From the IMG/VR virus record IMGVR_UViG_3300027759_000048: 64,000 nucleotides of DNA; one strand, 5' to 3'. Made by a program: the position numbers and the translations under genes. The notes under the pieces are model-generated. The model did not search any database, was not told the DNA's origin, and saw only the letters and a list, made by a program, of their open reading frames with translations. This document shows, piece after piece, positions 5,940 to 29,044 of the stretch. Source of the DNA: a virus. The first letter of the stretch is position 1, and each line of letters starts with the position of its first letter.

Positions 5940-5953
5940 CACAGGAGTATATA

Positions 5954-12922: not shown

Positions 12923-13845
12923 TCATAGGCGGAGCCAGTAACTACAATTGGAATCAGTTGCGTTATTGGGTCAATTCAATCAAGAAGACTGGTTTCAAAG
13001 GTGACATTGTTTTAGTTGCTACAAACATGTCAGGCGATACAGTAAAGAAACTTGTGGAAGAAGATGTAAAAGTTTATGCTTATGGCAATCGTACCGAAGA
13101 TGGTGGCATTGCTAAAACAGAAAACAACATTCCTCCACATGTAGAACGTTTCATTTTCATCTGGGATTTCCTACGCAAGAACAAAGATGAATACCGTTTT
13201 GTCACCGTCACTGATACCCGTGATGTTATCTTTCAGAAAGATCCAACAGAATTTCTTGAAAGCAAGTTGTTGTATGGTGCGGCATCTATGGTGTGTGCCT
13301 CAGAAGGATTGGCATACAAAGATGAGCCGTGGGGTAGTAAAAATCTACTTGACACATTCGGTCCATTGGTGTATGATGAGTTGAAAGATAAGTTGATTTA
13401 CAATGTAGGAACAATTGCTGGATTTGCTGATGAGGTTAGAGACCTTCTAATTCAGATTTTCTTTCAGTCAGTCAATCGTCCTATTCCTATTGTTGACCAG
13501 GCTGTGTTCAACTTTATCATTAGCATGGCTGCTTATGAATTGGAGATTATTAGAACAAGTAATGAGAGTGGTTGGGCTGTTCAACTTGGAACGACACTAG
13601 AAGCAATCAAAGCTGGTGCTGGTGACATTGGACAGATTGTTAGACAAGACCCGTCTAAACTTGACGAATATATAAAAGTGTATAAAGACACACAGCCTAT
13701 CATAAAAGATGACCTTGTGACAAACGAATACATACCTTTCACGATTGTCCATCAATGGGATCGTGTTCCTGCTATTAGAGACCTTGTTGAGAAAGTATAT
13801 GGTGATGGAAAATGCGAGGAAGTGATAACTCTAAAAACACACTAA
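12907..13845 (+). CDS. putative glycosyltransferase (GT-A like)
   Basis: TDTRDVIFQKDP, NVGTIAG, DQAVFN, HQWDR. Confidence 0.65.
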   Translation: MAKDLIIGGASNYNWNQLRYWVNSIKKTGFKGDIVLVATNMSGDTVKKLVEEDVKVYAYGNRTEDGGIAKTENNIPPHVERFIFIWDFLRKNKDEYRFVTVTDTRDVIFQKDPTEFLESKLLYGAASMVCASEGLAYKDEPWGSKNLLDTFGPLVYDELKDKLIYNVGTIAGFADEVRDLLIQIFFQSVNRPIPIVDQAVFNFIISMAAYELEIIRTSNESGWAVQLGTTLEAIKAGAGDIGQIVRQDPSKLDEYIKVYKDTQPIIKDDLVTNEYIPFTIVHQWDRVPAIRDLVEKVYGDGKCEEVITLKTH

Positions 13846-14687
13846 GACTAGGCTTTGCTGATACCTTTGATGGTGCCAAAGAATATTTTACTAGTCTGTT
13901 ATCAAAACGATTTGAGATAGTCCGGGACGATGAGCGCCCGGATTATCTTATATTTGGTGATAGAAACTTTGGTGAAAGTAATCTAAGATATCAGAATTGT
14001 GTTCGTATCTTCTACACAGGTGAGAACCAGCGTCCGTCTGATTACAGATGTAACTTTTCTATTTCATTTGACCATCCTACAACAAGTAGAATGTTTCGTT
14101 TGCCTCTCTATCTAATCTATGAGTTTGACCATAAGATTTGGCAGAATAGAGAAGCAAGACATGAGGATGATTTCAACACAAAAAAGTTCTGTTCATTTGT
14201 TGTAAAGAATCCTGGATGTAAGTATCGTAACGATTACTTCGGCATTCTATCAAAGGTTGATCAGGTAGATTCCGCTGGTCCTCTATTCAATAATATGTAT
14301 GAAGGATGGCGGCCTGAAAGCGTTGCTGAAAAAGTAAAGTTTATGAGCAAGTATCGTTTCAATCTTTGCTTTGAGAATAGTTCTTATCCTGGCTACTGTA
14401 CCGAGAAACTATTTGAGGCTCTTTGTGCTAAGACTGTTCCAATCTATTGGGGTAGTCCAACTGCGGCACTAGATTTCAATCCAAGAGCATTCATTAACCG
14501 TTATGACTATTCTAGCGAACAAGAGTTCTTTGATGCTATCATTAGACTACATACTAACAAGGACGCATACAACCAATACTATCTACAGCCTATGTTTAGA
14601 GATGATGAGTTTATCAGAAACTTCAATCCTGATAACTTCCTAGATTGGTTTCAACAAAATGTATATCAAGGTGTGATCAACAAATGA
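13812..14687 (+). CDS. alpha-1,3-fucosyltransferase-like (GT10)
   Basis: IFYTGEN, KKFCSFVV.NP, YRFNLCFENSSYPGYCTEKL..A...TVPIYWG. Confidence 0.9.
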   Translation: MRGSDNSKNTLRLGFADTFDGAKEYFTSLLSKRFEIVRDDERPDYLIFGDRNFGESNLRYQNCVRIFYTGENQRPSDYRCNFSISFDHPTTSRMFRLPLYLIYEFDHKIWQNREARHEDDFNTKKFCSFVVKNPGCKYRNDYFGILSKVDQVDSAGPLFNNMYEGWRPESVAEKVKFMSKYRFNLCFENSSYPGYCTEKLFEALCAKTVPIYWGSPTAALDFNPRAFINRYDYSSEQEFFDAIIRLHTNKDAYNQYYLQPMFRDDEFIRNFNPDNFLDWFQQNVYQGVINK

Positions 14688-15412
14688 ATAAAGCCCTAAT
14701 CATTACTCCCACAGGTCGTCCGATCTACTTTCATGAAGATTATGATAAAGATAATCATTGGCGCTATACAAAGCCAGAACGCACATATGAAACTTGTGTG
14801 GTAGTCTATAATGACTTTCAGCCAGAACCAGGAACATATGACTACATAATTCGCCGTAAAGGTCTAAAGTGGAATCTTGCTCCTGAAGTTTCAAAGATTA
14901 TCAACTGGGAAGATTATGATTACATTGGTGTATGGGATGATGATTATGCTACCGACATTCAGTCAATCAACAAGTCACTAGCATATGCTCGGCGTTATGA
15001 TTTCAGATTGTTTCAACAATCAACAACCTCATTTCAGACATATGATTGCCTCAAGCATAACCCAGAGTTTGCTTTTACAGAAACTAACTTTATTGAACTA
15101 GGTGTGCCATTCTTTCGTAATGATATCTATCGTAAGGTTCTTCGTTTTTTAGACGCATACAGATATGAAGCATCGGATTGGGGTATTGATAAAGTCTTAT
15201 GCTATTATTTACAAGCATCTGCCCATGTTGTCCATGAAACAACTGTTAGACATATGCTGCCTGATGAAAGCACATACAATAAAGAAGACGGTTTCAGAGA
15301 GATGGAATATCTCATGCGAGAGTTCTTTCCGAAGTATATGAAAGAGAACTTTGGTTTGGACTATCAGTATTCAGATGTTCAACAGACGATAAGGGCTTAT
15401 AAAAATGGGTAA
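14684..15412 (+). CDS. DUF707-like putative glycosyltransferase
   Basis: YDYIGVWDDD, TNFIELGVPFF, WGID. Confidence 0.65.
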   Translation: MNKALIITPTGRPIYFHEDYDKDNHWRYTKPERTYETCVVVYNDFQPEPGTYDYIIRRKGLKWNLAPEVSKIINWEDYDYIGVWDDDYATDIQSINKSLAYARRYDFRLFQQSTTSFQTYDCLKHNPEFAFTETNFIELGVPFFRNDIYRKVLRFLDAYRYEASDWGIDKVLCYYLQASAHVVHETTVRHMLPDESTYNKEDGFREMEYLMREFFPKYMKENFGLDYQYSDVQQTIRAYKNG

Positions 15413-16205
15413 TATGACACGATACATCAATTGGATGGAAGTGACACAACAGTATAATAGAGGTCTACCTTTTAATCACGTAGTTATTGATGATTTCTTT
15501 TTGCCACACGTAGCAGAACAATTGGCTAATGAGTTTCCAGATTACAACGATCCTTCTCTTGGCTACTATAACAATGCTATTGAGAACAAGAAAGTCTTCA
15601 ACAAATGGGACAAGTTTCCTAAGCTAACGTATCAAGTATTCACTATGCTTGGTCGTTTCAACTTTCTGTTTAATGTCAGAGGTCTTATTGGCAATCCCAA
15701 TACAACTGAGTTATGGATGGATTATGGTCTGAATGGTGGTGGATGGCATATGCATACCAAAGGTGGCAAGAACAATGTTCACCTTGATTACAACATTCAT
15801 CCTAAACTTGGTGAACAGCGCAAACTGAACATCATTATCTATATGACGCCAGACTGGAAGACAGAATGGGAAGGCGGCCTAGAGCTATGGACACACGATT
15901 CAGAAAAGAGACGCCCGAAGAATTTGGTAAAGACAGTTGAAAACAAATTCAATCGTGCCGTTATCTTTGACACAACACAGAATAGCTGGCATGGTCTTCC
16001 TAAAGAACTAAAGTGTCCAGAAGGTGTTGTTCGCAAATCTCTTGCTGCTTACTATGTTCAGCCTGCTCCTGTTGGTGCTGATCCTCGTGGTAAAGCATTG
16101 TTTGCTCCTACAAAAGAACAAGAAGGTAATCCAGAGATTGAGCAACTAATCCGAGATAGATCCAATGTTGCTACGGCAGACAAGTTTCATGCAGGAGACA
16201 AATAA
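15405..16205 (+). CDS. 2OG-Fe(II) oxygenase
   Basis: PFNHVVIDDF, VHLDYN, WEGGLELW, SWHG, RKSLAAYY. Confidence 0.9.
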   Translation: MGNMTRYINWMEVTQQYNRGLPFNHVVIDDFFLPHVAEQLANEFPDYNDPSLGYYNNAIENKKVFNKWDKFPKLTYQVFTMLGRFNFLFNVRGLIGNPNTTELWMDYGLNGGGWHMHTKGGKNNVHLDYNIHPKLGEQRKLNIIIYMTPDWKTEWEGGLELWTHDSEKRRPKNLVKTVENKFNRAVIFDTTQNSWHGLPKELKCPEGVVRKSLAAYYVQPAPVGADPRGKALFAPTKEQEGNPEIEQLIRDRSNVATADKFHAGDK

Positions 16206-16915
16206 TGGAAGAGACTGATGTAGTATTCTTCATCAATAGTGCTATGAATGTGACTGGTCGTTCCCTCTACTCTAATGATGTTAGATGGGAACAGACACAA
16301 GAGACCATTTTATCTATTGACAAACAGGTACCAAATAATATAAAATACTTAATTGATGGATCTTATCTACCTATCGAGGAAGAGAAACTTGACTGGTTGA
16401 AAGATCATGGTGTTCGTATGGCTTTCACAGGTCATATTCCTGGTATTGCTGAGATATCACAGAACATCGCTCAGTATGGTATTGGTAATAGTATTGCCGA
16501 AACTCGTTCTATGTTTCTGTTTGTTTCTACTTTTCTAGAGACAGAGTATAAGAACATCAAGGCAAAGCGTATCTGTAAGTTATCTGGTAGGTATAAGATT
16601 AATGAAAACTTTAAGTGGAGTGATCCTGCTTATGAAAACAAGTATGTCTTTGTGAAGCATCACCCATCAAATAGTCCTGTGAAAGATCAAATCGGTCTTA
16701 CAGGTTTGTTTGTTGTGCGTTGCTGGCACATGGATTATGCTCTACTAGATAACTACAGAGAGGTTATCAGAAACATTGCTGCCGATTGCGCCAGTCTCGG
16801 TATCGATGCTGAAAACTCTTATTACAAAAACATTCCTAAAGATTTACTTTATGAAGTGGAAAAGATTGGCGTAGAAGGTTATGTCTCACCCGTGGGAGTC
16901 TATGAAAATGAGTAA
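16205..16915 (+). CDS. hypothetical protein (KLSGRY motif, glycan-cluster associated)
   Basis: Translationally coupled 236-aa ORF. Confidence 0.7.
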   Translation: MEETDVVFFINSAMNVTGRSLYSNDVRWEQTQETILSIDKQVPNNIKYLIDGSYLPIEEEKLDWLKDHGVRMAFTGHIPGIAEISQNIAQYGIGNSIAETRSMFLFVSTFLETEYKNIKAKRICKLSGRYKINENFKWSDPAYENKYVFVKHHPSNSPVKDQIGLTGLFVVRCWHMDYALLDNYREVIRNIAADCASLGIDAENSYYKNIPKDLLYEVEKIGVEGYVSPVGVYENE

Positions 16916-17954
16916 AACACTATTGGTTACAGGTGGTGCCGGGTTTATCGGTCACCACGTTATTGACTTGTTCCTTCAGAAAACTGATTGGAACATTGTA
17001 TCGTTAGATCGCCTAGATTACTCTGGCAATCTAAATCGTCTTGATGATGTTGTTCGTCGTTATGATGTGGCAACACGCAAGAGAGTAAAAGTTGTGTATG
17101 GTGATCTTCGTGCCGAAGTTACATCATTACAGCAAAACTTTATTGGTGATGTTGATTACATCTTACACATGGCAGCGTCGTCACACGTTGACCGCTCTAT
17201 TGAAGATCCAATGTCATTCGTTATGGACAATGTTGTCGGCACAGTAAATATTCTAAACTTTGCCCGCAAATGTTCCAATCTAAAGAGGTTCGTCTATTTC
17301 AGCACCGACGAAGTATTCGGTCCTGCTCCTGGTACAATTACATATGGAGAACGTGATCGTTACAACTCAACTAATCCTTATTCGGCGTCTAAGGCTGCTG
17401 GTGAAGAGATGTGTGTTTCGTTCGAGAACACATACAAGTTGCCTATCTTCATTACACATACAATGAATGTCTTTGGTCAGCGTCAGCATCCAGAGAAGTT
17501 CTTACCAATGTGTATTCGTAAGGTTCGCAATGAAGAAACTGTTACGATCCATTCAGATCCATCAAAGACTGTTCCTGGTTCACGTTTCTATATTCATGCG
17601 GCTGATGTTGCTGATGCTATGTATTTCCTACTACATCTATCACCAGAGCAGGTTGCTAAAGTTCATGAGCCTGATTATGGTGGAGCTAAGTGTCCTAAGT
17701 TCAATGTTGTTGGTAAAGAAGAAATCAACAATCTAGAACTAGCTAAGTATGTTGCTGGCGCAGAAGGCAAAGAACTAAACTATGAAATGGTTGACTTCCA
17801 TTCTTCACGTCCAGGTCATGACTTGCGTTATGGTCTATCAGGTGAGTATATGAAATCACTTGGTTGGGAACCGAAATATACATTGCGTGAGCGTATCAAA
17901 GAAGTGGTCGACTGGTCACTTGCTAACCCAGAATGGATTGAGGTGACAGAATGA
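16908..17954 (+). CDS. rmlB: dTDP-glucose 4,6-dehydratase
   Basis: GGAGFIG, AASSHVDRSI, STDEVFG, YSASKA, QHPEKF, RPGHDLRY. Confidence 0.92.
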   Translation: MSKTLLVTGGAGFIGHHVIDLFLQKTDWNIVSLDRLDYSGNLNRLDDVVRRYDVATRKRVKVVYGDLRAEVTSLQQNFIGDVDYILHMAASSHVDRSIEDPMSFVMDNVVGTVNILNFARKCSNLKRFVYFSTDEVFGPAPGTITYGERDRYNSTNPYSASKAAGEEMCVSFENTYKLPIFITHTMNVFGQRQHPEKFLPMCIRKVRNEETVTIHSDPSKTVPGSRFYIHAADVADAMYFLLHLSPEQVAKVHEPDYGGAKCPKFNVVGKEEINNLELAKYVAGAEGKELNYEMVDFHSSRPGHDLRYGLSGEYMKSLGWEPKYTLRERIKEVVDWSLANPEWIEVTE

Positions 17955-18523
17955 GTAACGGTGTAACATATACAATTATTGATCCTATGCCAGACCCACA
18001 ATGGGTATCTGGTAAAGATGTTCTTCCATTACTAAAGGACTTTGTTAATCCTGTTGGTATTGAAATCGGTGTTGATGAAGCACCAACGAGTTGGTTCTTT
18101 CTCAAGAATAGACCAGACTTGAAGCTATATGGTGTGGATCCTTATCAGGCATATCAAGATTGGTATCCAGAAGGTTATATCAGTCAGCGTCAACAGGACG
18201 AGAAGTATGAAAATATGCGTCGTCGTACCGCAGAGTTTGGTGATAGATGGAAGCATTATCGTCTAACATCCGACGATGCTGTTCCGTTGTTTCAAGACAA
18301 TGCGTTTGACTTTATCTTCATTGACGGTCTACATGAGTATGCTCAGGTTCTAACAGACTGTCGCAACTACTGGCCTAAGATTAAGAAGGGCGGAGTATTT
18401 GCTGGCCATGACTATCGTGTAATTGAAGGCGTTGGTCGTGCGGTTGATGAATTTGCTAAAGAGATGGGAGCAACACCAATTCATCTTCCTGAGCAAGACG
18501 CATGGTATTGGATTAAGGAGTAA
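17951..18523 (+). CDS. class I SAM-dependent O-methyltransferase (Methyltransf_24-like)
   Basis: EIGV, GVDPY, FDFIFIDGLHEY, GGVFAGHDY. Confidence 0.85.
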   Translation: MSNGVTYTIIDPMPDPQWVSGKDVLPLLKDFVNPVGIEIGVDEAPTSWFFLKNRPDLKLYGVDPYQAYQDWYPEGYISQRQQDEKYENMRRRTAEFGDRWKHYRLTSDDAVPLFQDNAFDFIFIDGLHEYAQVLTDCRNYWPKIKKGGVFAGHDYRVIEGVGRAVDEFAKEMGATPIHLPEQDAWYWIKE

Positions 18524-18526
18524 ACT

Positions 18527-19747
18527 ATGGATTGGGAATGTCGTCCTATTACAGAATGTATCGCATGTGGTTCTACCGATTTAGTTCCTGTGTTGGATCT
18601 CAATTCCCAACCATTAGCTAACTCTTATAAGAAGATACAGAATGAACCTGAGCAAACATTTCCTCTAGCAATTAATCGCTGTGAACATTGCTTTCATGTT
18701 CAACTAACACATCAAGTAAATCCTGAATTGATGTTCAAGGATTATGCTTATGTGTCAGGTACAGCTAAAACATCGTTAGAGTATTTCAATTGGCTAGTTG
18801 ACCAGATCGTAAAGAAATATGGCTCTACACCAGAGTCAGTGTTAGATATTGGATGCAATGACGGTAGTTTTCTAAACGCATGGGGTGGCACGGGAGCCTC
18901 CAGATATGGCGTTGATCCTGCTGAAAACTTGCATCCAATATCTTCTCTCAATCATACGGTTCACTGTGGATTCTTTACAGGCAAAGAGTTTGGTTCTAAG
19001 CAGTTTGATGTTATCACTTGCTTGAATGCCTTTGCTCATAATGCGGATCAGTTATCTTTGCTAAAGAACATTGCTCCACGTATGCATGAGGATAGTCTAT
19101 TGTTCTGTTCCGTATCACAGGCTGATATGATTATCAATGGTGAGTTTGATACAATCTACCACGAGCATCTATCATTTTATAACATCAAGTCAGCTAGAGC
19201 TTTGTGTAATCGTGCCGGACTACACCTTATCGATGTTATAGAACATCCAATTCATGGTGGAAGTCTTATCTTTGTTATATCAAAAGTCAAAGAAGCAAAG
19301 TTGAATATTGAAAAGAAGATTGTGGAAGAAGAAAACTATGGTTTGTATGATCCTGACACATATACTCACTATGCTGAAAAGTGTTACTTTATTGCTGATA
19401 AGTTTGCTGAGACAATCAGAGGCTATCGTGGATTAGGATATACAGTAGTTGGTTATGGTGCTCCTGCTAAAGGTAACACTCTAATGAACTTTGCTAATGA
19501 AGGTCCAGACTTTATCGTTGATGATAATCCTCTCAAGCAATTACACTTTACACCAGGTATGTCTGTTCCGATTTACTCTCAATCTTATCTAACACTAAAT
19601 CATTTTGAGAAACCAAAAGTATGCTTCGTTCCACTAGCATGGAACTTTTATGATGAGATTGTAAAGAAGATCAAAGAGATTAGACCACCACATACACATA
19701 AGGATATTTTTGTGCGTTACTTCCCAAAGTTTGAGATCAATGATTAG
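18527..19747 (+). CDS. NDP-sugar C-methyltransferase
   Basis: Zn motif CIAC...CEHC, LDIGCNDG, FDTIYHEHLSF, HGGSL, GYGAPAKGNT. Confidence 0.9.
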   Translation: MDWECRPITECIACGSTDLVPVLDLNSQPLANSYKKIQNEPEQTFPLAINRCEHCFHVQLTHQVNPELMFKDYAYVSGTAKTSLEYFNWLVDQIVKKYGSTPESVLDIGCNDGSFLNAWGGTGASRYGVDPAENLHPISSLNHTVHCGFFTGKEFGSKQFDVITCLNAFAHNADQLSLLKNIAPRMHEDSLLFCSVSQADMIINGEFDTIYHEHLSFYNIKSARALCNRAGLHLIDVIEHPIHGGSLIFVISKVKEAKLNIEKKIVEEENYGLYDPDTYTHYAEKCYFIADKFAETIRGYRGLGYTVVGYGAPAKGNTLMNFANEGPDFIVDDNPLKQLHFTPGMSVPIYSQSYLTLNHFEKPKVCFVPLAWNFYDEIVKKIKEIRPPHTHKDIFVRYFPKFEIND

Positions 19748-20522
19748 AGCATATTATCATATTCATCTAACAGATGATCCTCTAATCTGGTCATCTATCT
19801 TTCTTGAGCAAATGAAGGTGATAGAGGATTCAGGTCTCAATACACAAATTGATAAGATGAAAGTCACCTGTATTGCTCAGGACGATGATCGTATTGCTAT
19901 GTTTGTCCGACTATGTGAGTCCTATAACATTCCTATGGAATTAACCGCTGTCAAGAATCCATTTGACAACGACCGTGACATGCTCTATAATAGAAACACT
20001 AACAAGTCATGCACGGAAGATATTACACTAAAGCGTATCTATGAGGATTGTAAGACTGAAGACATGAAGGTTCTATACTTTCATTCCAAAGGCTCAACTT
20101 CATATTCCACTAACGTCAATGTCAATAACATTGTCAAACATAAGGAATACTTTTACTGGCGTTCTTTCATGAATTGGTCTGTGTTACGAAACTGGCAGTT
20201 TTGTGAGAATGCTCTAAACAGTTATGACATTGCTGGTGGTGATTATCATGAAGAACCTTCGCCACATTTCTGTGGTAACTTTTGGTGGGCAAACTCAAGT
20301 CATATAAGACAACTGCCCGACCCGATTGATAAGACATGGTGGCATAAATTACAAGAGATAACTACAGATGCTTGGATCAAACAAGCACCTGTAAGAATGT
20401 ATGATGAAATGTGGATCGGTGCTAGAGAGGGCGTCAAGGCATATGATGTTGTCGAACTTGGTGATAGAAGTGCGGTCAACGGATGCTTGACTAAGATAGA
20501 TTGCGAAAGGTTTAGAAAATGA
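19740..20522 (+). CDS. hypothetical glycosyltransferase-like protein
   Basis: YFHSKG, WR..M.W, HFCGNFWWA, EMWIG. Confidence 0.6.
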   Translation: MIRAYYHIHLTDDPLIWSSIFLEQMKVIEDSGLNTQIDKMKVTCIAQDDDRIAMFVRLCESYNIPMELTAVKNPFDNDRDMLYNRNTNKSCTEDITLKRIYEDCKTEDMKVLYFHSKGSTSYSTNVNVNNIVKHKEYFYWRSFMNWSVLRNWQFCENALNSYDIAGGDYHEEPSPHFCGNFWWANSSHIRQLPDPIDKTWWHKLQEITTDAWIKQAPVRMYDEMWIGAREGVKAYDVVELGDRSAVNGCLTKIDCERFRK

Positions 20523-21766
20523 AAGTAGCAGTTATTGGTGCAGGTGGTCATGTTGGCTTTCCATTTGCTTGTGTGATTGCTGAAGCAGGTCATACAGTTT
20601 ATGGTATAGATATCAATCAGTATAATGTTGATTGTCTAACCAAAGGTATTGTGCCATATGTTGAAGAAGGTGCTGGTGTTATTCTTCGCCGCAATCTTGA
20701 CAACAATCGTTTGATATTTACGACAGACTTTGACTTTATCAAAAACGTTGATGTTATCGCCATTATGATTGGCACGCCAGTTGATGGAGAAGGTAATGCC
20801 AGACTTGATGATCTTTTTAATTTTGTTGATGATACTCTTATTCCTCGTATGAATGTAGGACAATTGATTGTTCTTCGTTCTACAGTATCACCAGGAACAA
20901 CAGAGGTTCTTCGTAAACATATTGCCAAGAAACATGGCTGGGCAGAAGGTGCTGATTATCATCTTGTATTCTGTCCTGAGAGAGTTGTTCAAGGTAAGTC
21001 TATTATTGAAACTGGCAAGCTACCACAGCTTGTTGGTGCTTTTACAACTCGTTCTTTTGAGGTTGCTAGAGATTTCTTTAGTACCTTTATCACAAATCAA
21101 ATCTTTCATCTGTCTCCCAAAGAGGCAGAGATTGGCAAGTTGATGACAAATATGTATCGTTATGTTACTTTTGCGTTTGCCAATGAGTTCTGGATGATTG
21201 GTGAAAAGCATGGAGTAAACATTGATAAAGTTATTGACGCATGTAATTACGACTATCCAAGAATGGATGTACCTCACCCTGGACCTAATGTCGGAGGGCC
21301 TTGTCTATTTAAAGATGGTCGTTTTCTTCTTTCTGATATTCCTTTCGGCGATCTTATTCAAACTAGCTTCCTTATCAATGAGGGCATGCCTGATTATATC
21401 TTCAACCGTATCAGAGAAATAAATCCTAACATTGAGAACGTTCTAATTCTCGGTGCTACATTCAAGAAGAACTGTGACGATACACGAAACAGTCTTTCAT
21501 TCAAGATGAAGAAGGTATGTAAGAAGCATGGTGTGACTGCTTATATGGTTGACCCGATGCATATTGAAGATATGAATATACCAAACAACAAAACATTCGA
21601 TGCTGTGATTGTCATGACACCACATGATGATTTTCTCAATCCAGAGACATTCGGATACAAGACAACAGATTTTAGCTACGATTGTGTTATTGCTGATCTA
21701 TGGAAGATGTTTCCAAAAAGTAAGCTAAGTAATACCGGCATATATAAAGCAGGAGAAGTTCTATGA
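20519..21766 (+). CDS. nucleotide-sugar 6-dehydrogenase (UDP-Glc/UDP-ManNAc dehydrogenase family)
   Basis: GAGGHVG, LRSTVSPGTT, CPERV, VGGPCLFKD (catalytic Cys), DDTRNS. Confidence 0.9.
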   Translation: MKVAVIGAGGHVGFPFACVIAEAGHTVYGIDINQYNVDCLTKGIVPYVEEGAGVILRRNLDNNRLIFTTDFDFIKNVDVIAIMIGTPVDGEGNARLDDLFNFVDDTLIPRMNVGQLIVLRSTVSPGTTEVLRKHIAKKHGWAEGADYHLVFCPERVVQGKSIIETGKLPQLVGAFTTRSFEVARDFFSTFITNQIFHLSPKEAEIGKLMTNMYRYVTFAFANEFWMIGEKHGVNIDKVIDACNYDYPRMDVPHPGPNVGGPCLFKDGRFLLSDIPFGDLIQTSFLINEGMPDYIFNRIREINPNIENVLILGATFKKNCDDTRNSLSFKMKKVCKKHGVTAYMVDPMHIEDMNIPNNKTFDAVIVMTPHDDFLNPETFGYKTTDFSYDCVIADLWKMFPKSKLSNTGIYKAGEVL

Positions 21767-22755
21767 AGGTTTTAGTGACAGGTAGTGAAGGTTCATTGAT
21801 GCAGGCAGTTATTCCGCTGCTATTGAAAAAGGGTTATGTTGTTGTCGGTGTTGATAACTTAGCACGATATGGCGAACGTCTTGGTATCGCCGGTAATGAT
21901 TATCAGTTTATCAAGTGTGATCTTACAGACCGTATCAGCGTTGATAGATTGATTGAACAGACTAGACCAGACTGTATCATTCAGGCTGCTGCTACAATCT
22001 ACGGCGTCGGTGGCTTCAATAAATATTGTGGTGAGATGTATAAAGATATCTCTCTACATGATAATGTTCTTAGGGCTGCTGTTAAGAATGGTGTGCTAAA
22101 GGTAATCTACATTTCATCATCTATGGTCTATGAGAACTGTCCACAGAAGATTGGTTATCCTGTAGCGGAAGATATCATTGATACAAATCCAGCACCATAT
22201 ACAGATTACGGACTATCAAAGTTTGTTGGTGAACGTGTTTCTAAGGCATACCTAAAGCAGCATGGATTGAAATATACAATCTGGCGTCCGTTCAATATCA
22301 TTACACCATATGAAAAGAGTGAAGATGCTGAAGTTGGTATCTCCCATGTGTTTGCTGATTACATCAAAAACATTGTAATCGAGAGAAAGCATCCACTACC
22401 TATCATCGGTAATGGTAGTCAGGTACGTTGCTTCACGTGGATTGATGAAGTGGCTGCTGCTATTGCTGATCATTCATTCTCTAACAAGACAGATAACCAG
22501 ATATACAATCTAGGTAATCCTGAACCTATCTCTATGCGAGTTCTAGCAGAGAAGATCAAGGACATTGCTTCAAAAGAGTTTAGATTGTTTGATGATTACT
22601 TCTTGCTTTACGAAACAGTTGGTAATTATGAGAACGATGTTCTTGTGCGTATTCCTGATTGTGATAAAGCAAAGAATGAACTTGGTTGGGAAGCCAAGAT
22701 GAAAGTTGATGACTCAATTCGTATGTGCCTCAAACATGTTGTGGAGAAAAAATGA
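21763..22755 (+). CDS. NAD-dependent epimerase/decarboxylase (UDP-GlcA decarboxylase-like)
   Basis: SSSMVYE, YGLSK, WRPFN, GSQVRCFT. Confidence 0.8.
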   Translation: MKVLVTGSEGSLMQAVIPLLLKKGYVVVGVDNLARYGERLGIAGNDYQFIKCDLTDRISVDRLIEQTRPDCIIQAAATIYGVGGFNKYCGEMYKDISLHDNVLRAAVKNGVLKVIYISSSMVYENCPQKIGYPVAEDIIDTNPAPYTDYGLSKFVGERVSKAYLKQHGLKYTIWRPFNIITPYEKSEDAEVGISHVFADYIKNIVIERKHPLPIIGNGSQVRCFTWIDEVAAAIADHSFSNKTDNQIYNLGNPEPISMRVLAEKIKDIASKEFRLFDDYFLLYETVGNYENDVLVRIPDCDKAKNELGWEAKMKVDDSIRMCLKHVVEKK

Positions 22756-23693
22756 AAACATTCGTAGTCACGGGTTGTAACGGTTTTATCGGCAGCCATA
22801 TGTGCTACGAGTTGCGGCAGTCATATCCAGACTGTCACATCATAGGAGTAGATAAAGTTGATAAACCGCATCTTAGGCATCTGTATGATGTTTATAGCCG
22901 TATTGATATGTCTGTCAATTCCCTTTATTTCGGATCAAAGAGTATCGACTGCTTATTCCACTTTGCCGCATACATTTCAGTGGAAGAGGGTGAACGAGAT
23001 CCATGGGCATACTACAGGAACAACATTGGTGCCACATTCGGAGCCATCGACGCAGCAAAATACTACGGAATAAAGAACTTTATCTTTTCTTCTACTGCCG
23101 CTGTGTATGGTGACTCCATCAATCCACTAGCTGGACACATAATGGAAACACGACCAATAAATCCTGTTTCTGTCTATGGTAAAACAAAAGCAATATGTGA
23201 AGATATATTATCTACTCTTGATGGTATCAATGTAGCCCGCCTACGCTATTTCAATGCCTGTGGTAGAAACGCTAAAGCAAATCTACATGAAGAACATAAT
23301 CCAGAAACACATCTCATTCCTCTTCTAGTCAGAAACAAGAAAGCAGCTATTTACGGAGACACATGGGCAACGAAAGATGGAACGTGTGTTCGTGATTATG
23401 TTCATGTGATTGATATCTGCCGGGCTCATATCTGTGCCTATGAGTATATAAGTAACAATGAAGGTTCTAATATTGCTTGTAACATTGGAACAGGCACTGG
23501 ATATACTGTCAAGGAAGTGATTGACAAAGTAAACGAAATCATTCATAATGGTGAGATGGAAATAGTTTATGAGGATCGTCGCAATGGTGACGTTCCTTAT
23601 CTTGTTGCTGATACAACAACCGCAGAAACAGTATTAAAATTTAAACCAGAGCATACACTAGACGATATCATAGAAAGTATGAAGAATGGATAA
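22752..23693 (+). CDS. galE: UDP-glucose 4-epimerase
   Basis: GCNGFIGSH, FSSTAAVYG, YGKTK, LRYFNACG, ETHLIP, DGTCVRDYVHV. Confidence 0.9.
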   Translation: MKTFVVTGCNGFIGSHMCYELRQSYPDCHIIGVDKVDKPHLRHLYDVYSRIDMSVNSLYFGSKSIDCLFHFAAYISVEEGERDPWAYYRNNIGATFGAIDAAKYYGIKNFIFSSTAAVYGDSINPLAGHIMETRPINPVSVYGKTKAICEDILSTLDGINVARLRYFNACGRNAKANLHEEHNPETHLIPLLVRNKKAAIYGDTWATKDGTCVRDYVHVIDICRAHICAYEYISNNEGSNIACNIGTGTGYTVKEVIDKVNEIIHNGEMEIVYEDRRNGDVPYLVADTTTAETVLKFKPEHTLDDIIESMKNG

Positions 23694-23853
23694 GTGGGAA
23701 GAACTGAAACTTCTTATTGATGGACATATGGCATGGCCTGTAATCTACAGCCACTCAAGAGAGTTTGAAAAAGGTGAACTGAAGCGTGTTAAAGAATGGA
23801 TGGAATATCTAGAAGAGAAGGAAAAGAAGAATGAAATACAAAGCACCGACTGA
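23686..23853 (+). CDS. small hypothetical protein
   Basis: 55-aa ORF (MDKWEELKLL...) bridging galE and the acyl-CoA dehydrogenase. Confidence 0.5.
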   Translation: MDKWEELKLLIDGHMAWPVIYSHSREFEKGELKRVKEWMEYLEEKEKKNEIQSTD

Positions 23854-25489
23854 ATCCGCATTATTTCTTCTTCGTGATGTTTTAAAGTTTGACAACGATC
23901 TATCTGAACCTATTATCAATGAAGCAGCAAAGCTATGTGAAGAGATTATCTTTCCTACTAATGCTGATGGTGACAATGGTTGTGAAAGAGGCGTGTTTAA
24001 TGATGTTACTGTGCCAGGTACATTTCACAAAGTATATGAAGAGTTTAGTAAAGGTGGCTGGGGCGCATTAGATGTGTCAGAACAATATGGTGGTCAGGGA
24101 TTGCCTAATGTTCTATTCTCAGCCGTCAATGAGTTTGTTTGTTCTAGTAACATGGCCTTCAGTTTGTTCCCTGGTATTACTAAGGGTGCGATTACAGCTA
24201 TTCTAGCAGAAGGTACACAAGAGCAAAAAGATAATTATGTTCCTAAGATGGCCTCTGGTGAATGGACTGGTACCATGAACTTGACAGAACCACATTGTGG
24301 TACTGATCTAGGTTTGCTCAAAACAAAAGCCATTTCTACTGGTAGAGATACAGAATTTTTAATTACAGGTCAAAAGATATTCATTTCATGTGGTGAACAT
24401 GACCTAACAGAAAACATTATTCATCTTGTATTAGCAAGAGTTGAAGGTGATCCACCAGGAACAAAAGGTATCAGTTTGTTTATTGTTCCTAAGATACATG
24501 GTGATGGTGAATACAACAAACTATCAGTTGGTTCTATTGAACACAAGATGGGTATCAAAGGTTCACCTGCTTGTGTTATGAACTATGATGGTGCTGTTGG
24601 TTATCTACTTGGCGAAAGAGGTAAGGGTTTAAATGTTATGTTCCACATGATGAATGAGGAGCGTATTAACTGTGCTCTACAGGCACTTGGACAATCGGAG
24701 TTGGCTTATCAAAATGCTTTGGAATATGCTAGAGAACGGATACAAAGTTCTAGAATCACTGATCCTAAAGGCCCCGCTGTGGCTATTATTAACCATCCTG
24801 ATGTCCGTCGTATGCTTCTCGATATACGATCTTTCAACGAAGCATCAAGATTGTGTTTATATGAAGCAGCCTTGCTCGTTGATGATAAATCAGATGACGC
24901 ACAGGAACGATTAGGACTTATTACACCAGTATTGAAAGGTATGTTTACTGATTATGGTTTTGAGAATGCTGTCAAGGCACAGCAAGTCTTTGGAGGACAT
25001 GGTTATATTAAAGAGTGGGGTATGGAGCAGATTGTTCGGGATGTTCGCATATCTCAGATTTACGAAGGTGCCAACGGCATACAGGCAATGGATCTTGTTG
25101 GTCGTAAACTCCCTAAGAACTTTGGGCGGGGTATAAAAACATTCTTGGCTGATAGTGCTCATTTCTTAACCGGCGCTTATGAGAATGGTATCAATCCTAT
25201 TGTTCAGCCAATGACTACATCCGTTGATCATTTGAAGCAGGCGACAGAATGGCTAGTTGGTCATGCTATGAAGAATCCAAACAATGCTGGTTCTGCCGCA
25301 TATGATTACATGGAGATTTTTGGTATTGTATTGCTTGGTCTTGCTCATGTGAAGATTTGTCTTGCTACTGACGATAAAGACAGACACAATACAGCCCAGT
25401 ATTTCATGGATCGGATCGCACCCAAGACACAGTTTCTTTTGAACCGTATTCGTAAAGGTAGCGATACAATGATGAATGCCGACCTCTGA
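23831..25489 (+). CDS. acyl-CoA dehydrogenase (DmdC / long proteobacterial ACAD type)
   Basis: GTMNLTEPHCGTDL, GQKIFIS, GTKGISLF, EHKMGI, QVFGGHGYI.EWGMEQ.VRD.RI.QIYEGANGIQAMDL. Confidence 0.93.
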   Translation: MKYKAPTESALFLLRDVLKFDNDLSEPIINEAAKLCEEIIFPTNADGDNGCERGVFNDVTVPGTFHKVYEEFSKGGWGALDVSEQYGGQGLPNVLFSAVNEFVCSSNMAFSLFPGITKGAITAILAEGTQEQKDNYVPKMASGEWTGTMNLTEPHCGTDLGLLKTKAISTGRDTEFLITGQKIFISCGEHDLTENIIHLVLARVEGDPPGTKGISLFIVPKIHGDGEYNKLSVGSIEHKMGIKGSPACVMNYDGAVGYLLGERGKGLNVMFHMMNEERINCALQALGQSELAYQNALEYARERIQSSRITDPKGPAVAIINHPDVRRMLLDIRSFNEASRLCLYEAALLVDDKSDDAQERLGLITPVLKGMFTDYGFENAVKAQQVFGGHGYIKEWGMEQIVRDVRISQIYEGANGIQAMDLVGRKLPKNFGRGIKTFLADSAHFLTGAYENGINPIVQPMTTSVDHLKQATEWLVGHAMKNPNNAGSAAYDYMEIFGIVLLGLAHVKICLATDDKDRHNTAQYFMDRIAPKTQFLLNRIRKGSDTMMNADL

Positions 25490-25630
25490 TGGACTCTATT
25501 ACTCAGGCAGAATTTGATAAACAATTCGCTGAGTATGTAAAAGACAAAGAGGTGAATAAAGATAATCTATTGGAACTGAAGATAGAGTATATGAAGATAC
25601 TGAAAGAAAAAGGGCTGACGGTTCGTGCTG

Positions 25631-25638
25631 GATAAATA
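25631..25638 (+). promoter_or_regulatory. possible T4-type late promoter
   Basis: GATAAATA about 30 nt upstream of the TTG start, with an AGGAGG SD. Confidence 0.5.
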
Positions 25639-25666
25639 GACGTGGACCAGCCTAAAAGGAGGCCCT

Positions 25667-26410
25667 TTGAAAAATAAAGATCGCAGAAAGTATCGCTCTA
25701 TCTTTATATCTGATGTTCATCTTGGCACTAAACATTCAAATGCGGAACTCTTGCTAGAGTTTCTAAAATCTACTGAGGCCGAAACATACTATCTAATAGG
25801 TGATATTATTGATGGTTGGAGTATGAAGAAAAAAATACATTGGCCACAGTCTCATTCTAATGTTCTACAATACCTTCTCAAACTATCAAAGAACGGGCAC
25901 AAAGTTGTTTATATAACTGGTAACCATGATGAGTTTCTCCGTGAGTATGGTGGAACTGTATTGGGTAATATTGAGTTAGTAAATGAGTGTATTCATGTGG
26001 GAGAAGATAACAATAGGTATCTTGTTATTCATGGTGACCAGTTTGACCTGGTCACAACCAATGCTAAGTGGCTTGCTTATGTTGGTGGTTGGGCTTATGA
26101 TTGTATGATTGACTTGAATACTAAATTACAATGGGTATATAGAACTCTTAACATTCGAGGCTTCTCATTATCTGCGTGGGCAAAGCATAATGTCAAAGAG
26201 GCAGTAAACTTTATCGGTGACTATGAGTCTGTGGTTGCAGATGCAGCCAAAAGGAGATGCGTCGATGGGGTTATATGTGGCCATATACATTCTGTTAATA
26301 TATCTACTATTGATGGTGTTAAATATATGAACTGTGGTGACTGGGTAGAATCCTGCACCGCTATTGTTGAACACCACAGTGGAAAGTTTGAGATTATAAG
26401 GAAACTATAA
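25667..26410 (+). CDS. plcP: PlcP-type phospholipase C (LpxH-like metallophosphoesterase)
   Basis: YRSIFISDVHLG, GDIIDGW, GNHDE, HGDQFD, SLSAWAK..VK.AVNFI, CGHIH, GDWVESCTA.VEH. Confidence 0.8.
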   Translation: MKNKDRRKYRSIFISDVHLGTKHSNAELLLEFLKSTEAETYYLIGDIIDGWSMKKKIHWPQSHSNVLQYLLKLSKNGHKVVYITGNHDEFLREYGGTVLGNIELVNECIHVGEDNNRYLVIHGDQFDLVTTNAKWLAYVGGWAYDCMIDLNTKLQWVYRTLNIRGFSLSAWAKHNVKEAVNFIGDYESVVADAAKRRCVDGVICGHIHSVNISTIDGVKYMNCGDWVESCTAIVEHHSGKFEIIRKL

Positions 26411-27399
26411 TGCGTTTGACTATCTTTACTGATGCGTGGGATCCACAAATCAATGGTGTTGTTACAACATTAAAGACAACTATTGAACACTTAGAAAAGC
26501 GTGGACATTCTGTAAGAGTTGTCCACCCTGGTCTATTCAAGATGACAATACCTTTACAACCTTCAACTGGCATCTACATGCCGCTTTTGCCTATGGGTAT
26601 AGCTGATGATGAAGTGAAAGAAGCTGAACATATTCATATCGCAACAGAAGGATCAATCGGTCTTGCCGCAAGATATTATTGTAAAAAGTATAAGAGACGT
26701 TACACTACATCCTTTCACACTAAGTATCCAGAGTACCTTTATGAACACGCTTATATACCACCAAGAATTACTGGTGGGTATTTTCGTTGGTTCCATAGAA
26801 ACAGCAATTGTGTTATGGTACCAACCCCCGCCATGGTTGATTACTGTTCTAAACTCGGTATAAAGAATGTAAAGATATGGTCCCGTGGAGTTGATACAAA
26901 TATCTTCAAACCATCTGATTGGAAGAACACTGGTGTTATTCGTGCGGTCTATGTCGGTCGTGTATCAGCCGAAAAGAACCTAATCGAATATCTAGAGGTG
27001 AGCAATCCAAACATTGTTAAGTATGTAATCGGCGATGGACCTCAGTTAGAGGAATATAAAGTGAGATATACTGATGCTTATTTTCTTGGTCGTAAGAACC
27101 GAGAAGAGATTGCTAAACTATTACAGGCATATGATGTGTTTGCTTGGCCATCAATGACAGATACATTTGGACTTGTTGTATTAGAAGGAATGGCTTGTGG
27201 ATTACCTGTTGCTGCACTCGATAACGAAGTTAATCGTTACATTATTGAAGATGGTAAGTCAGGTATTCTAACAGATAGTTATCACTTTGAAGAGGCAATT
27301 GTGAAAGCGTCTAAACTCAATAGAGATCATGCTGTGGCCAGAGCAAAACAATTCTCATGGGAAGCAGCAACCGATCAGTTTATAGAGAACATAGTATGA
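26410..27399 (+). CDS. agt: GT4 glycosyltransferase, Agt-type diacylglycerol glycosyltransferase
   Basis: TDAWDPQINGVV.TL, HIATEG.IG, TTSFHTKYPEY, WSRGVD, YVGRVS.EKN, DTFGLVVLE; translationally coupled to plcP. Confidence 0.75.
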   Translation: MRLTIFTDAWDPQINGVVTTLKTTIEHLEKRGHSVRVVHPGLFKMTIPLQPSTGIYMPLLPMGIADDEVKEAEHIHIATEGSIGLAARYYCKKYKRRYTTSFHTKYPEYLYEHAYIPPRITGGYFRWFHRNSNCVMVPTPAMVDYCSKLGIKNVKIWSRGVDTNIFKPSDWKNTGVIRAVYVGRVSAEKNLIEYLEVSNPNIVKYVIGDGPQLEEYKVRYTDAYFLGRKNREEIAKLLQAYDVFAWPSMTDTFGLVVLEGMACGLPVAALDNEVNRYIIEDGKSGILTDSYHFEEAIVKASKLNRDHAVARAKQFSWEAATDQFIENIV

Positions 27400-27656
27400 C
27401 TGAAACAGACTATAACGAAATTATAGATTCCTTACACAAGCTGGCTGATTGGGTTGAGAAAGACAACCATGTTCAATGTCACTCTGTTCCTCGTAAGGCT
27501 GCTTATCTGATTACTGTTTTACAAGAAGATAATAACATAATGAGAGTCCAACTTATGAAAGGTGGATACACTATCAAAGAACGAATAATGATGGCCATAG
27601 GTTCTGTATATCTTGTGTGGTACAAGTTTAAGAAGAAAAGGAAAAAGAATGTATGA
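27396..27656 (+). CDS. hypothetical protein
   Basis: ATGA overlap with the upstream gene. Confidence 0.6.
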   Translation: MTETDYNEIIDSLHKLADWVEKDNHVQCHSVPRKAAYLITVLQEDNNIMRVQLMKGGYTIKERIMMAIGSVYLVWYKFKKKRKKNV

Positions 27657-27940
27657 TGAAATATTTGACGATAATCTCAATGGTGGTATTCCCCACGGTT
27701 GCTAGTGCTCAGTATCATTCCTTGAGTGGTGGTCCTGTAACAGATATTCCTGCGTATTCATGGGAGAACCCTGGATGGAGTCAGGGATCAACCGCATTCA
27801 ATGCTAGTCCGCACCAGCTACCTACAGCGTCAGCACCCACAATGGTTCAATCATTTGCTCCTGATAGTCGTGGTGGTTCTGTTGGTGGTGGATCTATTCC
27901 ACCTTCACGATTGAATAATGACTTTGGAAACATGGATTGA
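27653..27940 (+). CDS. small secreted protein
   Basis: Signal peptide ending ASA. Confidence 0.6.
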   Translation: MMKYLTIISMVVFPTVASAQYHSLSGGPVTDIPAYSWENPGWSQGSTAFNASPHQLPTASAPTMVQSFAPDSRGGSVGGGSIPPSRLNNDFGNMD

Positions 27941-27952
27941 ATGTAAACAAGG

Positions 27953-27998
27953 TGCGACAATATGTCGCATTGACAAACCCACCTAGATCCTCTATAAT
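27953..27998 (+). promoter_or_regulatory. early promoter with an upstream palindrome resembling a RegA/PrrA/RegR box
   Basis: TGCGACA-ATA-TGTCGCA abutting TTGACA-N17-TATAAT. Confidence 0.8.
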
Positions 27999-28023
27999 GA
28001 GAGTTCTTATCATGGAGGTTTGT

Positions 28024-28431
28024 ATGCCATTGCTTCCCGTCTATTACACCACTACCAATCTACGCAAACGCAAACAGACCAAGCATGACCGTTCCGAACA
28101 CGATGCTTGGCTAATCAAGATGGGTGTATCCCCAAAACAAATCAAAGCAAAGAAAACTAAAGACACTAAATGGCGTTCCGACTATTCTGCTTCACTACAG
28201 GTAGAACGATCAACAAAAGAACATGAGCGTTCCTTACGTGAGGTTTGTAACGGTGGTCCTAATGCTACAGCCAATCGTTCCGTTATGGCTAACATACACA
28301 AAGAGTCCGAAGAAACTCGCAATGAAATTCTAGCGAAGGCTAAACGTGTTATGCCGTTGTATAACAAAGGTGGGCTTCAGGTATTGTCCGAGTCCGATGA
28401 TCTCAAAGCATTGAATAAGGTGGCACGATGA
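28024..28431 (+). CDS. hypothetical early protein (P.YNKG.LQ motif)
   Basis: GGAGG RBS downstream of the promoter. Confidence 0.75.
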   Translation: MPLLPVYYTTTNLRKRKQTKHDRSEHDAWLIKMGVSPKQIKAKKTKDTKWRSDYSASLQVERSTKEHERSLREVCNGGPNATANRSVMANIHKESEETRNEILAKAKRVMPLYNKGGLQVLSESDDLKALNKVAR

Positions 28432-28634
28432 GTGATGATTATTCACAACAGGACTTCGAATACATGTTGGATGGTTGGCGTGCTATGCAACAAGAAATCC
28501 TACGTCTTCGTGCTGAGAATGAGAAGTTACGGGGTGCCTTTCGTGTCAATATGCTCCGTGCTTTTTCCAATATGTCGCATGAGGAAATAGATGCTGAAAT
28601 AAACCGTGTATTGGAGAATAAAGATGAAAATTGA
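28428..28634 (+). CDS. hypothetical protein
   Basis: Coupled ORF. Confidence 0.6.
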   Translation: MSDDYSQQDFEYMLDGWRAMQQEILRLRAENEKLRGAFRVNMLRAFSNMSHEEIDAEINRVLENKDEN

Positions 28635-28863
28635 ATTAGATGATGCTATGCTATCTGGAATAGTCGTTCAAGACCTACAAAGATACCATGAGATTATGCT
28701 AAACAATCCAGAAGAGGATGGTGTCTGTAATGCTATTGAGATTGTATTATCACACTATCTGAATAGACAAGATTATATAACATGGTATAAAGGCGTATAT
28801 GGGCCAAAGGGTAAAGAGGTTGACTTTGGCGAAGATGTTGGATTGGAGGTTATAGATGAATAA
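28624..28863 (+). CDS. hypothetical protein (paralogue of the next gene)
   Basis: GGAG RBS; AIEIVLSHY...DY..W. Confidence 0.65.
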   Translation: MKIELDDAMLSGIVVQDLQRYHEIMLNNPEEDGVCNAIEIVLSHYLNRQDYITWYKGVYGPKGKEVDFGEDVGLEVIDE

Positions 28864-29044
28864 ATTTACACTTGAAATCGACTATGACATTATGGATGAA
28901 ATCACAAGACAAAATCTAAAGTCTGCTTATCATCATGCGGAAGATGATGAAATGCGTGATGCTATTGACCTTGTGTTATCATATTTCTCCAACCATGATG
29001 ATTACCAGAAATGGGTTGAAGAGAAATTGAACTATACTAAATAA
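28856..29044 (+). CDS. hypothetical protein (paralogue of the previous gene)
   Basis: GGAGG RBS; AIDLVLSYF...DY..W. Confidence 0.65.
   Translation: MNKFTLEIDYDIMDEITRQNLKSAYHHAEDDEMRDAIDLVLSYFSNHDDYQKWVEEKLNYTK

Follow-up and report, generated by a model that had tools for sequence, protein, structure and literature searches.

The DNA analysed here, a 64,000-nucleotide stretch referred to below as the window, comes from the IMG/VR virus record IMGVR_UViG_3300027759_000048 and contains two overlapping genes on the + strand. The first, at 25667-26410, encodes a 247-aa LpxH-like metallophosphoesterase, and the second, at 26410-27399, encodes a 329-aa GT4 enzyme that begins MRLTIFTDAWDPQINGVV. 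The first gene starts with TTG, 4 nt after GGAGG, and its ribosome-binding site AAGGAGG and start codon occupy 25655-25669. Its TAA stop and the ATG of the second gene share base 26410 (TAATG), and an AAGGA lies 7 nt upstream of this ATG. A Pfam search found Metallophos in the first product and Glyco_transf_4 (residues 14-164) plus Glycos_transf_1 (residues 173-300) in the second. Upstream of the pair, GATAAATA at 25631-25638 (+) contains the TAA stop of a 48-aa ORF, and its TAAATA core ends 29 nt before the first start codon. The initial annotation had described these features as a translationally coupled PlcP and Agt module for membrane-lipid remodelling, preceded by a late-promoter-like sequence instead of a Pho box, and the observation is confirmed in that all the stated features are in the sequence at the stated coordinates.

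The surrounding DNA is that of a T4-like myophage with uniform GC content and a CheckV completeness estimate of 54%. It encodes T4-type gp43, gp41, UvsX, gp44/62, gp45, RegA, CobS/CobT, tail tube and major head protein. A nucleotide search of the region against GenBank phages found nothing. At the protein level, however, at least 567 IMG/VR contigs encode a PlcP relative, and 38 of the best 80 have agt adjacent. The pair is conserved in related T4-like contigs of up to 146 kb, a further contig of 174 kb being listed in the protein index only, and both genes are under purifying selection (dN/dS 0.08-0.17). An alphaproteobacterial host is an inference. The neighbouring acyl-CoA dehydrogenase shows only 45-51% identity to cellular proteins, mainly from Alphaproteobacteria with a few from Gammaproteobacteria and Deinococcus in the same range, which is too distant to name a host.

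The first gene belongs to the PlcP (LpxH2) clade and not to LpxH. Its product is 50-57% identical to single-copy PlcP orthologues of Rhizobiales, including A. tumefaciens, and of other Alphaproteobacteria; a single copy was found in each of the Agrobacterium, Rhizobium, Bradyrhizobium, Methylocystis and Croceicoccus genomes. The link to the experimentally characterised proteins (SMc00171, MED193_17359, PB7211_983/960, PA3219) is indirect, as it runs through orthologues in the same genera or families and through published identities (PMC9239053), and a scan of genomes with the protein of pelagiphage Mosig, aimed at the SAR11 HTCC7211 loci, returned no Pelagibacter genome. The metal ligands D16, H18, D46, N86-H87, H122, H206 and H208 are invariant across 15 relatives and complete the dimetal phosphoesterase motifs, including GNHD and GHIH. 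A 2026 JBC paper on Burkholderia PlcP contains no motif information. The AlphaFold model predicts a metallophosphoesterase core with inserted helices at 124-196, though at lower pLDDT, and the insert holds about 12 Trp, Tyr or Phe in about 55 residues, a trait described for LpxH2 (PMC5016852).

Grouping of the esterase with LpxH had been named beforehand as the outcome that would overturn the PlcP assignment, and it was not observed. In the tree, 24 true LpxH are split from 59 PlcP-like rows by a branch of 3.39 substitutions per site with 100% support, and the window protein lies inside the PlcP side. Profile scores are bimodal in both directions. The phage protein scores 47.5 bits on TIGR01854 (cut-off 190) and 55.6 bits on NF003743 (cut-off 134), against 177-340 bits for true LpxH on the LpxH model, whereas a PlcP profile gives true LpxH 26-50 bits and 258-331 bits to paralogues that coexist with LpxH. 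The Arg of GNRD (Arg80), said to hold in all known LpxH (PMC5016852), is present in 22 of 24 LpxH rows and in none of the 59 PlcP-like rows, and the phage protein has GNHD. The alternative that the first gene is LpxH and the second an LPS glycosyltransferase, together an LPS-biosynthesis auxiliary module, is favoured by database names, as JGI names relatives LpxH and GenBank annotates the genes of Mosig and S-SRM01 in the same way, and by the LpxH-like fold. In view of the scores, the residue and the branch above it is very unlikely. In addition, the nearest cellular relatives are in Rhizobiales, and the A. tumefaciens genome searched gave no match to the LpxH model. This class is known to use LpxI instead.

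The second gene carries the signature residues of the characterised Agt/GTcp diacylglycerol glycosyltransferases, two of them with conservative changes, and its product has the GT-B GT4 architecture, with a length of 329 aa against 334 aa for GTcp. Residues shown to be essential in GTcp (bioRxiv 10.1101/2021.03.25.437072) were traced by alignment with cellular Agt sequences. PQINGVV with G16, HIATEG.IG, the catalytic dyad His104-Asp256, with Asp rather than Glu, and the following Glu264 (TSFHTKYPEY and PSMTDTFGLVVLE; PSMTDTFG....E) are present. The UDP-sugar motifs GRVAxEKN and FPSxTDTFG read GRVSAEKN (GRVSVEKN in Agrobacterium) and WPSMTDTFG, with F changed to W. Of the residues reported as crucial for diacylglycerol binding (Thr162, Arg163, Trp320), WSRGVD carries Ser-Arg at 162/163, as in the Agrobacterium copy, and FSWEAA carries the C-terminal Trp. 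In a tree, the protein groups with agt genes that lie next to plcP, apart from other GT4 enzymes. The gene also lies where agt lies in 82 bacterial loci, directly downstream of plcP, the layout tied to GADG/MGDG synthesis in SAR11, Erythrobacter and Methylosinus (PMC4796936, PMC9239053). The A. tumefaciens genome has one strong Agt hit, unlinked to plcP, as published for atu2297 and atu1649 (PMC3972451).

The Agt of this phage clade nevertheless sits on a long stem (1.95 substitutions per site) and has a rewritten stretch at residues ~44-66, so that donor or acceptor specificity may have shifted. It is conceivable, though unlikely, that the pair has drifted to other substrates, the esterase cleaving a different phosphodiester or pyrophosphate lipid and the GT4 glycosylating an acceptor other than diacylglycerol, for example as the last steps of the adjacent 11.5-kb glycan island. 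A sugar-nucleotide gene set lies directly upstream here and in L185, one of a series of related loci (L177-L186) compared with the window. Against this reading, the catalytic residues, the UDP-sugar-binding residues and the residues reported to bind diacylglycerol are all kept, and the only constant partner of each gene across contigs is the other, while the neighbours vary. The possibility that the upstream NDP-sugar dehydrogenase is a Ugd supplying UDP-glucuronate to Agt was rejected as unsupported, because it is closer to Cap5O/UDP-ManNAc dehydrogenases (2e-48) than to UDP-glucose dehydrogenases (1e-27 or weaker).

Upstream of plcP, neither a proteobacterial or cyanobacterial Pho-box pattern nor a TGTAAY tandem repeat was found; PhoB control is a regulatory trait and not a protein trait. 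Instead, NATAAATA, a T4-type late-promoter-like motif, sits 29-30 nt before the start codon in register in 11 of 13 close relatives, although their upstream DNA is unrelated. In this clade the late-type promoter motif travels with the cassette. The motif reads GATAAATA in the window and TATAAATA, AATAAATA or GATAAATA in L177-L186, no -35 hexamer lies at 16-18 nt, and the start codon is TTG or GTG in all near-clade homologues examined. Motifs with a TAAATA core are enriched 5-45 nt upstream of + strand genes (CTAAATA 9 of 16, p 4e-7), including the tail tube gene. The bare motifs carry no such signal, as the exact GATAAATA occurs 4 times in the window against 3.8 expected and TATAAATA is depleted (1 against 4.7), and the late-promoter assignment therefore rests on motif position and conservation only. 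Of the late transcription machinery (gp55, gp33, gp45), gp45 was found at 5936-6607, while gp55 was not located among the ORFs scanned in this 94-kb, 54%-complete fragment, including 20 extra ORFs scanned against PHROGs. A scan of 20000-29000 for sigma-70 promoters and terminators found no more sites than its shuffles, and no early promoter is claimed for the module.

One possibility, considered unlikely, is that the enzymes and chemistry are the same but the benefit is not phosphorus supply: swapping phospholipids for glycolipids may change envelope properties, for example to block superinfection, to alter adsorption or grazing susceptibility, or to tune membrane stability and the timing of lysis late in infection. 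Lipid remodelling changes phage attachment and predator interactions in bacteria (PMC9938194, PMC9804370, PMC9457565), the cassette of this clade has lost the phosphate-starvation control seen in another viral lineage, and its neighbours are an acyl-CoA dehydrogenase and a glycan island, not pstS or phoH. However, close relatives place the same pair 8 nt after phoH, Mosig places its plcP beside pstS and the other viral lineage has a Pho-box-like tandem repeat in front of plcP. All three link the module to phosphorus economy, and late expression is poorly suited to excluding superinfection.

Taken together, the locus is best explained, with moderate confidence, as a phage-borne copy of the bacterial plcP-agt lipid-renovation pathway, packaged as a two-gene cassette with its own T4-type late promoter. 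In this view PlcP, a predicted Mn-type intracellular phospholipase C with a helical lipid-binding insert, would cleave host glycerophospholipids into diacylglycerol plus a phospho-head group, and the translationally coupled Agt would transfer glucose or glucuronic acid (possibly galactose) from a UDP-sugar onto that diacylglycerol, giving phosphorus-free glycolipids that keep the bilayer intact. Membrane phosphorus would be released while the membrane is back-filled. PlcP releases phospho-alcohols and not phosphate, and no phage phosphatase was seen; host phosphatases would still be needed to turn the head groups into phosphate for nucleotide synthesis. Expression in this phage clade appears to be set by the phage late programme rather than by host PhoB. 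The analysis itself establishes family membership, signature residues, synteny, spread among phages, purifying selection and the conserved promoter motif, whereas the two enzyme activities, their timing and the use of the released phosphorus are inferred from sequence. The interpretation of the initial annotation is supported, including its suggestion that control may have passed to the phage programme, for which the conservation of the motif across relatives gives better support than the single sequence could; its proposal that the phage mines membrane phosphorus for its genome remains an inference.

No publication on phage PlcP-Agt was found, and virus surveys list "lpxH" (PMC10653327, PMC9611531). 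Phage phosphorus genes known so far act on uptake or signalling (pstS, phoA, phoH), and a phage-encoded PlcP-Agt pair would add the host's own membrane as a phosphorus reservoir that viruses can tap. By a rough estimate, the phospholipid phosphorus of a small aquatic cell is of the same order as the DNA phosphorus of a burst of ~170-kb genomes. Part of the "lpxH / LPS biosynthesis" signal in virome surveys may then be misread, and glycolipid signatures used as markers of phosphorus stress could be partly viral. The contrast between Pho-box-driven and late-promoter-driven versions bears directly on whether such genes answer to the host's or to the phage's control. A more far-reaching possibility, which is only tentative, is that a self-contained cassette (late promoter, plcP, agt) moves between positions in T4-like phage genomes and makes infected cells convert phospholipids to glycolipids whatever the host's phosphate status. 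Viral infection would then be both a route of membrane phosphorus into virion DNA and an unrecognised source of glucuronosyl- and glucosyl-diacylglycerol in natural waters.

The closest known system is the bacterial plcP-agt operon in the 'type 2' layout of Sebastian et al. 2016 (PMC4796936), found in SAR11 HTCC7211, Erythrobacter NAP1 and Methylosinus trichosporium OB3b (PMC9239053). The two families, the gene order and the catalytic and substrate-binding residues are shared, and the identity to cellular members (50-57% for PlcP, 35-42% for Agt) is in the range seen between characterised members (51% and 43% for OB3b against HTCC7211). The phage version differs in being carried by a T4-like phage, in its overlapping genes, where the bacterial loci examined have gaps of 45-230 nt, in the TTG or GTG start of plcP, in the NATAAATA late-type motif that takes the place of a Pho box, and in an Agt that lacks the C-terminal tail of many cellular copies and has the divergent segment at residues ~44-66. 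LpxH, the UDP-2,3-diacylglucosamine diphosphatase of lipid A synthesis (PDB 5K8K, 5B49, 6PH9), has a similar length, the same core with a helical insertion domain and the best structural match to the predicted model (TM 0.51-0.58), but only 18-20% identity; the phage protein corresponds to the 'LpxH2' paralogue, which the LpxH structure paper predicted to have another substrate (PMC5016852). The phosphate-stress auxiliary genes of cyanomyophages and pelagimyophages (pstS, phoH, phoA) share the T4-like background and, in close relatives and in Mosig, the neighbourhood of phoH or pstS, whereas the module described here, which in this clade is not under Pho-box control, would act on the host's internal membrane phosphorus pool rather than on uptake.

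On the + strand, ORF A (25667-26410, 247 aa) starts with TTG, 4 nt after a GGAGG, and ends in a TAA that shares base 26410 with the ATG of ORF B (26410-27399, 329 aa), which begins MRLTIFTDAWDPQINGVV. Pfam searches identified a calcineurin-like phosphoesterase in ORF A and the two GT4 halves, Glyco_transf_4 and Glycos_transf_1, in ORF B. Just upstream, a 48-aa ORF (25489-25635), for which no homologue was found in the related viral loci, ends with its TAA inside the late-promoter-like GATAAATA (25631-25638), while its ATG overlaps the stop codon of an acyl-CoA dehydrogenase gene (TGATG). The initial annotation, which had described two translationally coupled genes for an LpxH-like metallophosphoesterase and a GT4 enzyme behind a late-promoter-like motif, is therefore accurate in every particular of what it observed.

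The window is phage DNA and belongs to a 93.8-kb IMG/VR record that is estimated by CheckV to be 54% complete. About 90% of its ORFs lie on one strand and its GC content is even. It encodes a T4-type DNA polymerase (about 48% identical to cyanomyophage gp43), gp41 helicase, UvsX, UvsY, the gp44/62 clamp loader, the gp45 clamp, RegA, gp46/47, CobS/CobT, Hsp20, tail tube and major head protein, and the two genes are embedded among these genes rather than at a contig edge.

Several lines of evidence show that the esterase is of the PlcP type and not LpxH. The two LpxH equivalog models score it at 47.5 and 55.6 bits, against cut-offs of 190 and 134, and solved LpxH structures match by sequence only at E about 2e-4. 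Its nearest cellular relatives, at 50-57% identity over the full length, are single-copy genes of Rhizobiales and other Alphaproteobacteria, including Agrobacterium tumefaciens, Rhizobium, Bradyrhizobium and Methylocystis, lineages in which the PlcP pathway has been described (PMC3972451, PMC9239053). When 41 gammaproteobacterial genomes were searched with the LpxH model, a two-peaked result was obtained, with true LpxH at 177-340 bits and, in nine genomes, a second gene at 32-46 bits; one genome of this search is unpublished, was left out of the trees and supports no claim made here. Conversely, a profile built from the phage protein and its relatives scores the sampled second genes at 258-331 bits and true LpxH at 26-50 bits. 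In a maximum-likelihood tree of 83 sequences, 24 LpxH are separated from 59 PlcP-like proteins by a branch of 3.39 substitutions per site with 100% support, and the window protein lies inside the PlcP side in an all-viral clade of eight (100%). LpxH is defined by an Arg that replaces the His of the GNH(D/E) motif "in all species of known sequence" (PMC5016852). Of the LpxH rows analyzed here, 22 of 24 have GNRD, whereas all 59 PlcP-like rows, the phage protein included, keep the His, as GNHD in 58 and GNHE in one. All metal ligands are invariant. The AlphaFold model (pLDDT 80) has the phosphoesterase core with a helical insert at residues 124-196, and its 25 best structural matches are LpxH at 18-20% identity. 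This is what is expected of the "LpxH2" paralogue, which was predicted in the LpxH structure paper to bind a different lipid. A grouping of the esterase with LpxH, named beforehand as the outcome that would count against the PlcP reading, was thus not observed.

The glycosyltransferase is of the Agt type. The biochemical study of SAR11 GTcp lists a His104-Asp256 dyad (Asp, not the usual Glu), the motifs GRVAxEKN and FPSxTDTFG, a Gly-rich N-terminal motif and the diacylglycerol-contact residues Thr162, Arg163 and Trp320 (10.1101/2021.03.25.437072, published as PMC8231724). The phage protein was aligned with the genes that follow plcP in Kordiimonas, Roseibium, Croceicoccus, Methylocystis, Bradyrhizobium and Parvibaculales and with the single Agrobacterium hit, and was found to have G16 in PQINGVV, HIATEGSIG, TSFHTKYPEY, WSRGVD, GRVSAEKN, WPSMTDTFGLVVLE and FSWEAA. 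In the A. tumefaciens genome the phage glycosyltransferase finds one gene at E 8e-64, on a different contig from plcP, which matches the published unlinked atu2297 (agt) and atu1649 (plcP) (PMC3972451). A tree places the phage protein in a viral clade nested among cellular Agt sequences and far from other GT4 enzymes, and no solved structure is close. The clade of the window does, however, sit on a long stem (1.95 substitutions per site), and at residues ~44-66 it has replaced the conserved cellular stretch (P.P.YPEIRL...) with IPLQPSTGIYMPLLPMG. This may reflect a change in membrane or acceptor contact and leaves room for altered specificity.

Scans for proteobacterial and cyanobacterial Pho boxes found nothing upstream of plcP, and the bare 8-mer GATAAATA is not enriched in the window. 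Three other observations still support a late-type promoter. First, across the 94-kb genome the most enriched 7-mer 5-45 nt upstream of + strand starts is CTAAATA (9 of 16 copies, p 4e-7; for example at window positions 30703, 49883 and 52016, and upstream of 12539 in locus L255), including the site 18 nt before the tail tube gene, and five TAAATA sites, the plcP one among them, end 28-30 nt before a start codon. Second, in 11 of 13 near-clade loci (seven of the nine distinct upstream sequences aligned), TATAAATA, AATAAATA or GATAAATA sits in register 29-30 nt before the plcP start, although the DNA further upstream is unrelated; the exceptions are the viral locus L176 and the loci where phoH ends 8 nt before plcP. 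Third, no -35 hexamer lies at the right spacing. This is the anatomy of a T4-type late promoter, and it seems to travel with the cassette. As to the late transcription machinery, gp45 is present, while gp55 was not located among the ORFs scanned in this fragment. A different viral lineage with 51-55% PlcP identity instead has a tandem TGTAAY-N5-TGTAAY about 35 nt upstream of plcP, followed by TAAATA (loci L223, L227, L230 and L238, each at 5960, L239 at 5964, L253 at 5968, L250 at 1572, L247 at 5859 and L234 at 6). This pattern, of which further copies occur elsewhere in the same loci, gives 16 hits where about 0.4 is expected, ten of them at that spot, and has the geometry of a Pho box; the genome of the window has none. 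The proposal of the initial annotation that control has passed to the phage programme is thus supported by comparison, though not by transcript data. Just downstream of the module, a perfect sigma-70 consensus promoter (TTGACA, 17 nt, TATAAT; 27953-27998) directly follows a 17-bp palindrome and marks the start of a run of small genes.

The only constant partner of each gene is the other, whereas the upstream neighbours vary between the viral loci: phoH in L001 and L175, an acyl-CoA dehydrogenase in the window, L176, L180, L181 and L186 (61-71% identity), and a trio of an NDP-sugar dehydrogenase, an SDR and a GalE-like gene in L185 and, further back, in the window. The acyl-CoA dehydrogenase of the window (23831-25489) is intact, comprises 552 aa with the PF12806 C-terminal domain and is unusual cargo for a phage. 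It recurs within about 1.5 kb upstream of plcP-agt in the four loci, and its nearest cellular homologues are mainly Alphaproteobacteria at 45-51%. It may handle acyl chains, but it is not a constant partner of the module. The region 12173-23693 is a glycan island with a GT2, a GT10 fucosyltransferase-like gene, a 2OG oxygenase, an RmlB-like gene, an O-methyltransferase and a C-methyltransferase, the NDP-sugar dehydrogenase, an ArnA/UXS-like SDR and a GalE-like gene at 257.6 bits against a cut-off of 262.3. As the NDP-sugar dehydrogenase is nearer to Cap5O/UDP-ManNAc dehydrogenases than to UDP-glucose dehydrogenase, it is not claimed that the phage supplies UDP-glucuronate.

In the best reading of these data, PlcP would cleave host phospholipids to diacylglycerol and phospho-head groups, the coupled Agt would convert the diacylglycerol into glucosyl- or glucuronosyl-diacylglycerol, so that the membrane stays intact, and the freed phosphorus could enter nucleotide pools during late DNA synthesis and packaging. 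The interpretation given in the initial annotation, a phage-encoded PlcP-Agt lipid-remodelling module, is supported: the analysis establishes the family assignments, whereas the enzymatic activities, their timing and the fate of the phosphorus are inferred, and release of phosphate from the head groups would need host phosphatases. The plcP start codon is TTG or GTG, never ATG, in every near-clade copy examined (the window at 25667 and loci L001 and L175-L186). Together with the coupling to agt, this conserved start suggests a low PlcP dosage tied to Agt supply, which would be sensible for a phospholipase, although this too is inference.

In the literature searched, no paper was found that mentions plcP together with phage, viral contigs, viromes or auxiliary metabolic genes, and neither the announcement of Pelagibacter phage Mosig nor the pelagimyophage survey discusses the gene. 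Virome and viral metatranscriptome surveys do list "lpxH" (K03269) under LPS biosynthesis. Two isolates carry the esterase, annotated as UDP-2,3-diacylglucosamine hydrolase, namely Mosig (46% identity) and Synechococcus phage S-SRM01 (36%). The Mosig protein (MT647606.1, 94129-94866) belongs to the PlcP clade, and its gene lies divergently beside pstS with no agt next to it. A PlcP 93% identical to that of Mosig is encoded on a 17.6-kb MAG contig (NZIN01000059.1, 'Rickettsiales bacterium MED606'), which is probably a phage contig binned into a bacterial MAG.

Among viruses, at least 567 IMG/VR contigs encode a relative of the esterase, and 38 of the best 80 have the glycosyltransferase adjacent. 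Twelve IMG/VR loci, together with NCBI, ENA and Logan contigs of up to 146 kb among those fetched (L001; a 174-kb contig carrying the same protein is listed in the protein index), form the window's own clade. They are 72-87% identical in PlcP and 61-79% in Agt, and keep the one-base overlap or a gap of a few bases. Within this clade dN/dS is 0.08-0.17 for both genes, a rough figure because dS is near saturation. In 82 of the bacterial loci fetched with the esterase, the glycosyltransferase homologue (34-42% identity, full length; two loci are cut short by a contig end) lies directly downstream on the same strand, 45-230 nt away. This is the "type 2" plcP-agt layout of Sebastian et al. (PMC4796936), which is tied experimentally to GADG/MGDG synthesis in SAR11 and to GADG in Methylosinus, where a plcP-agt knock-out lost GADG (PMC9239053).
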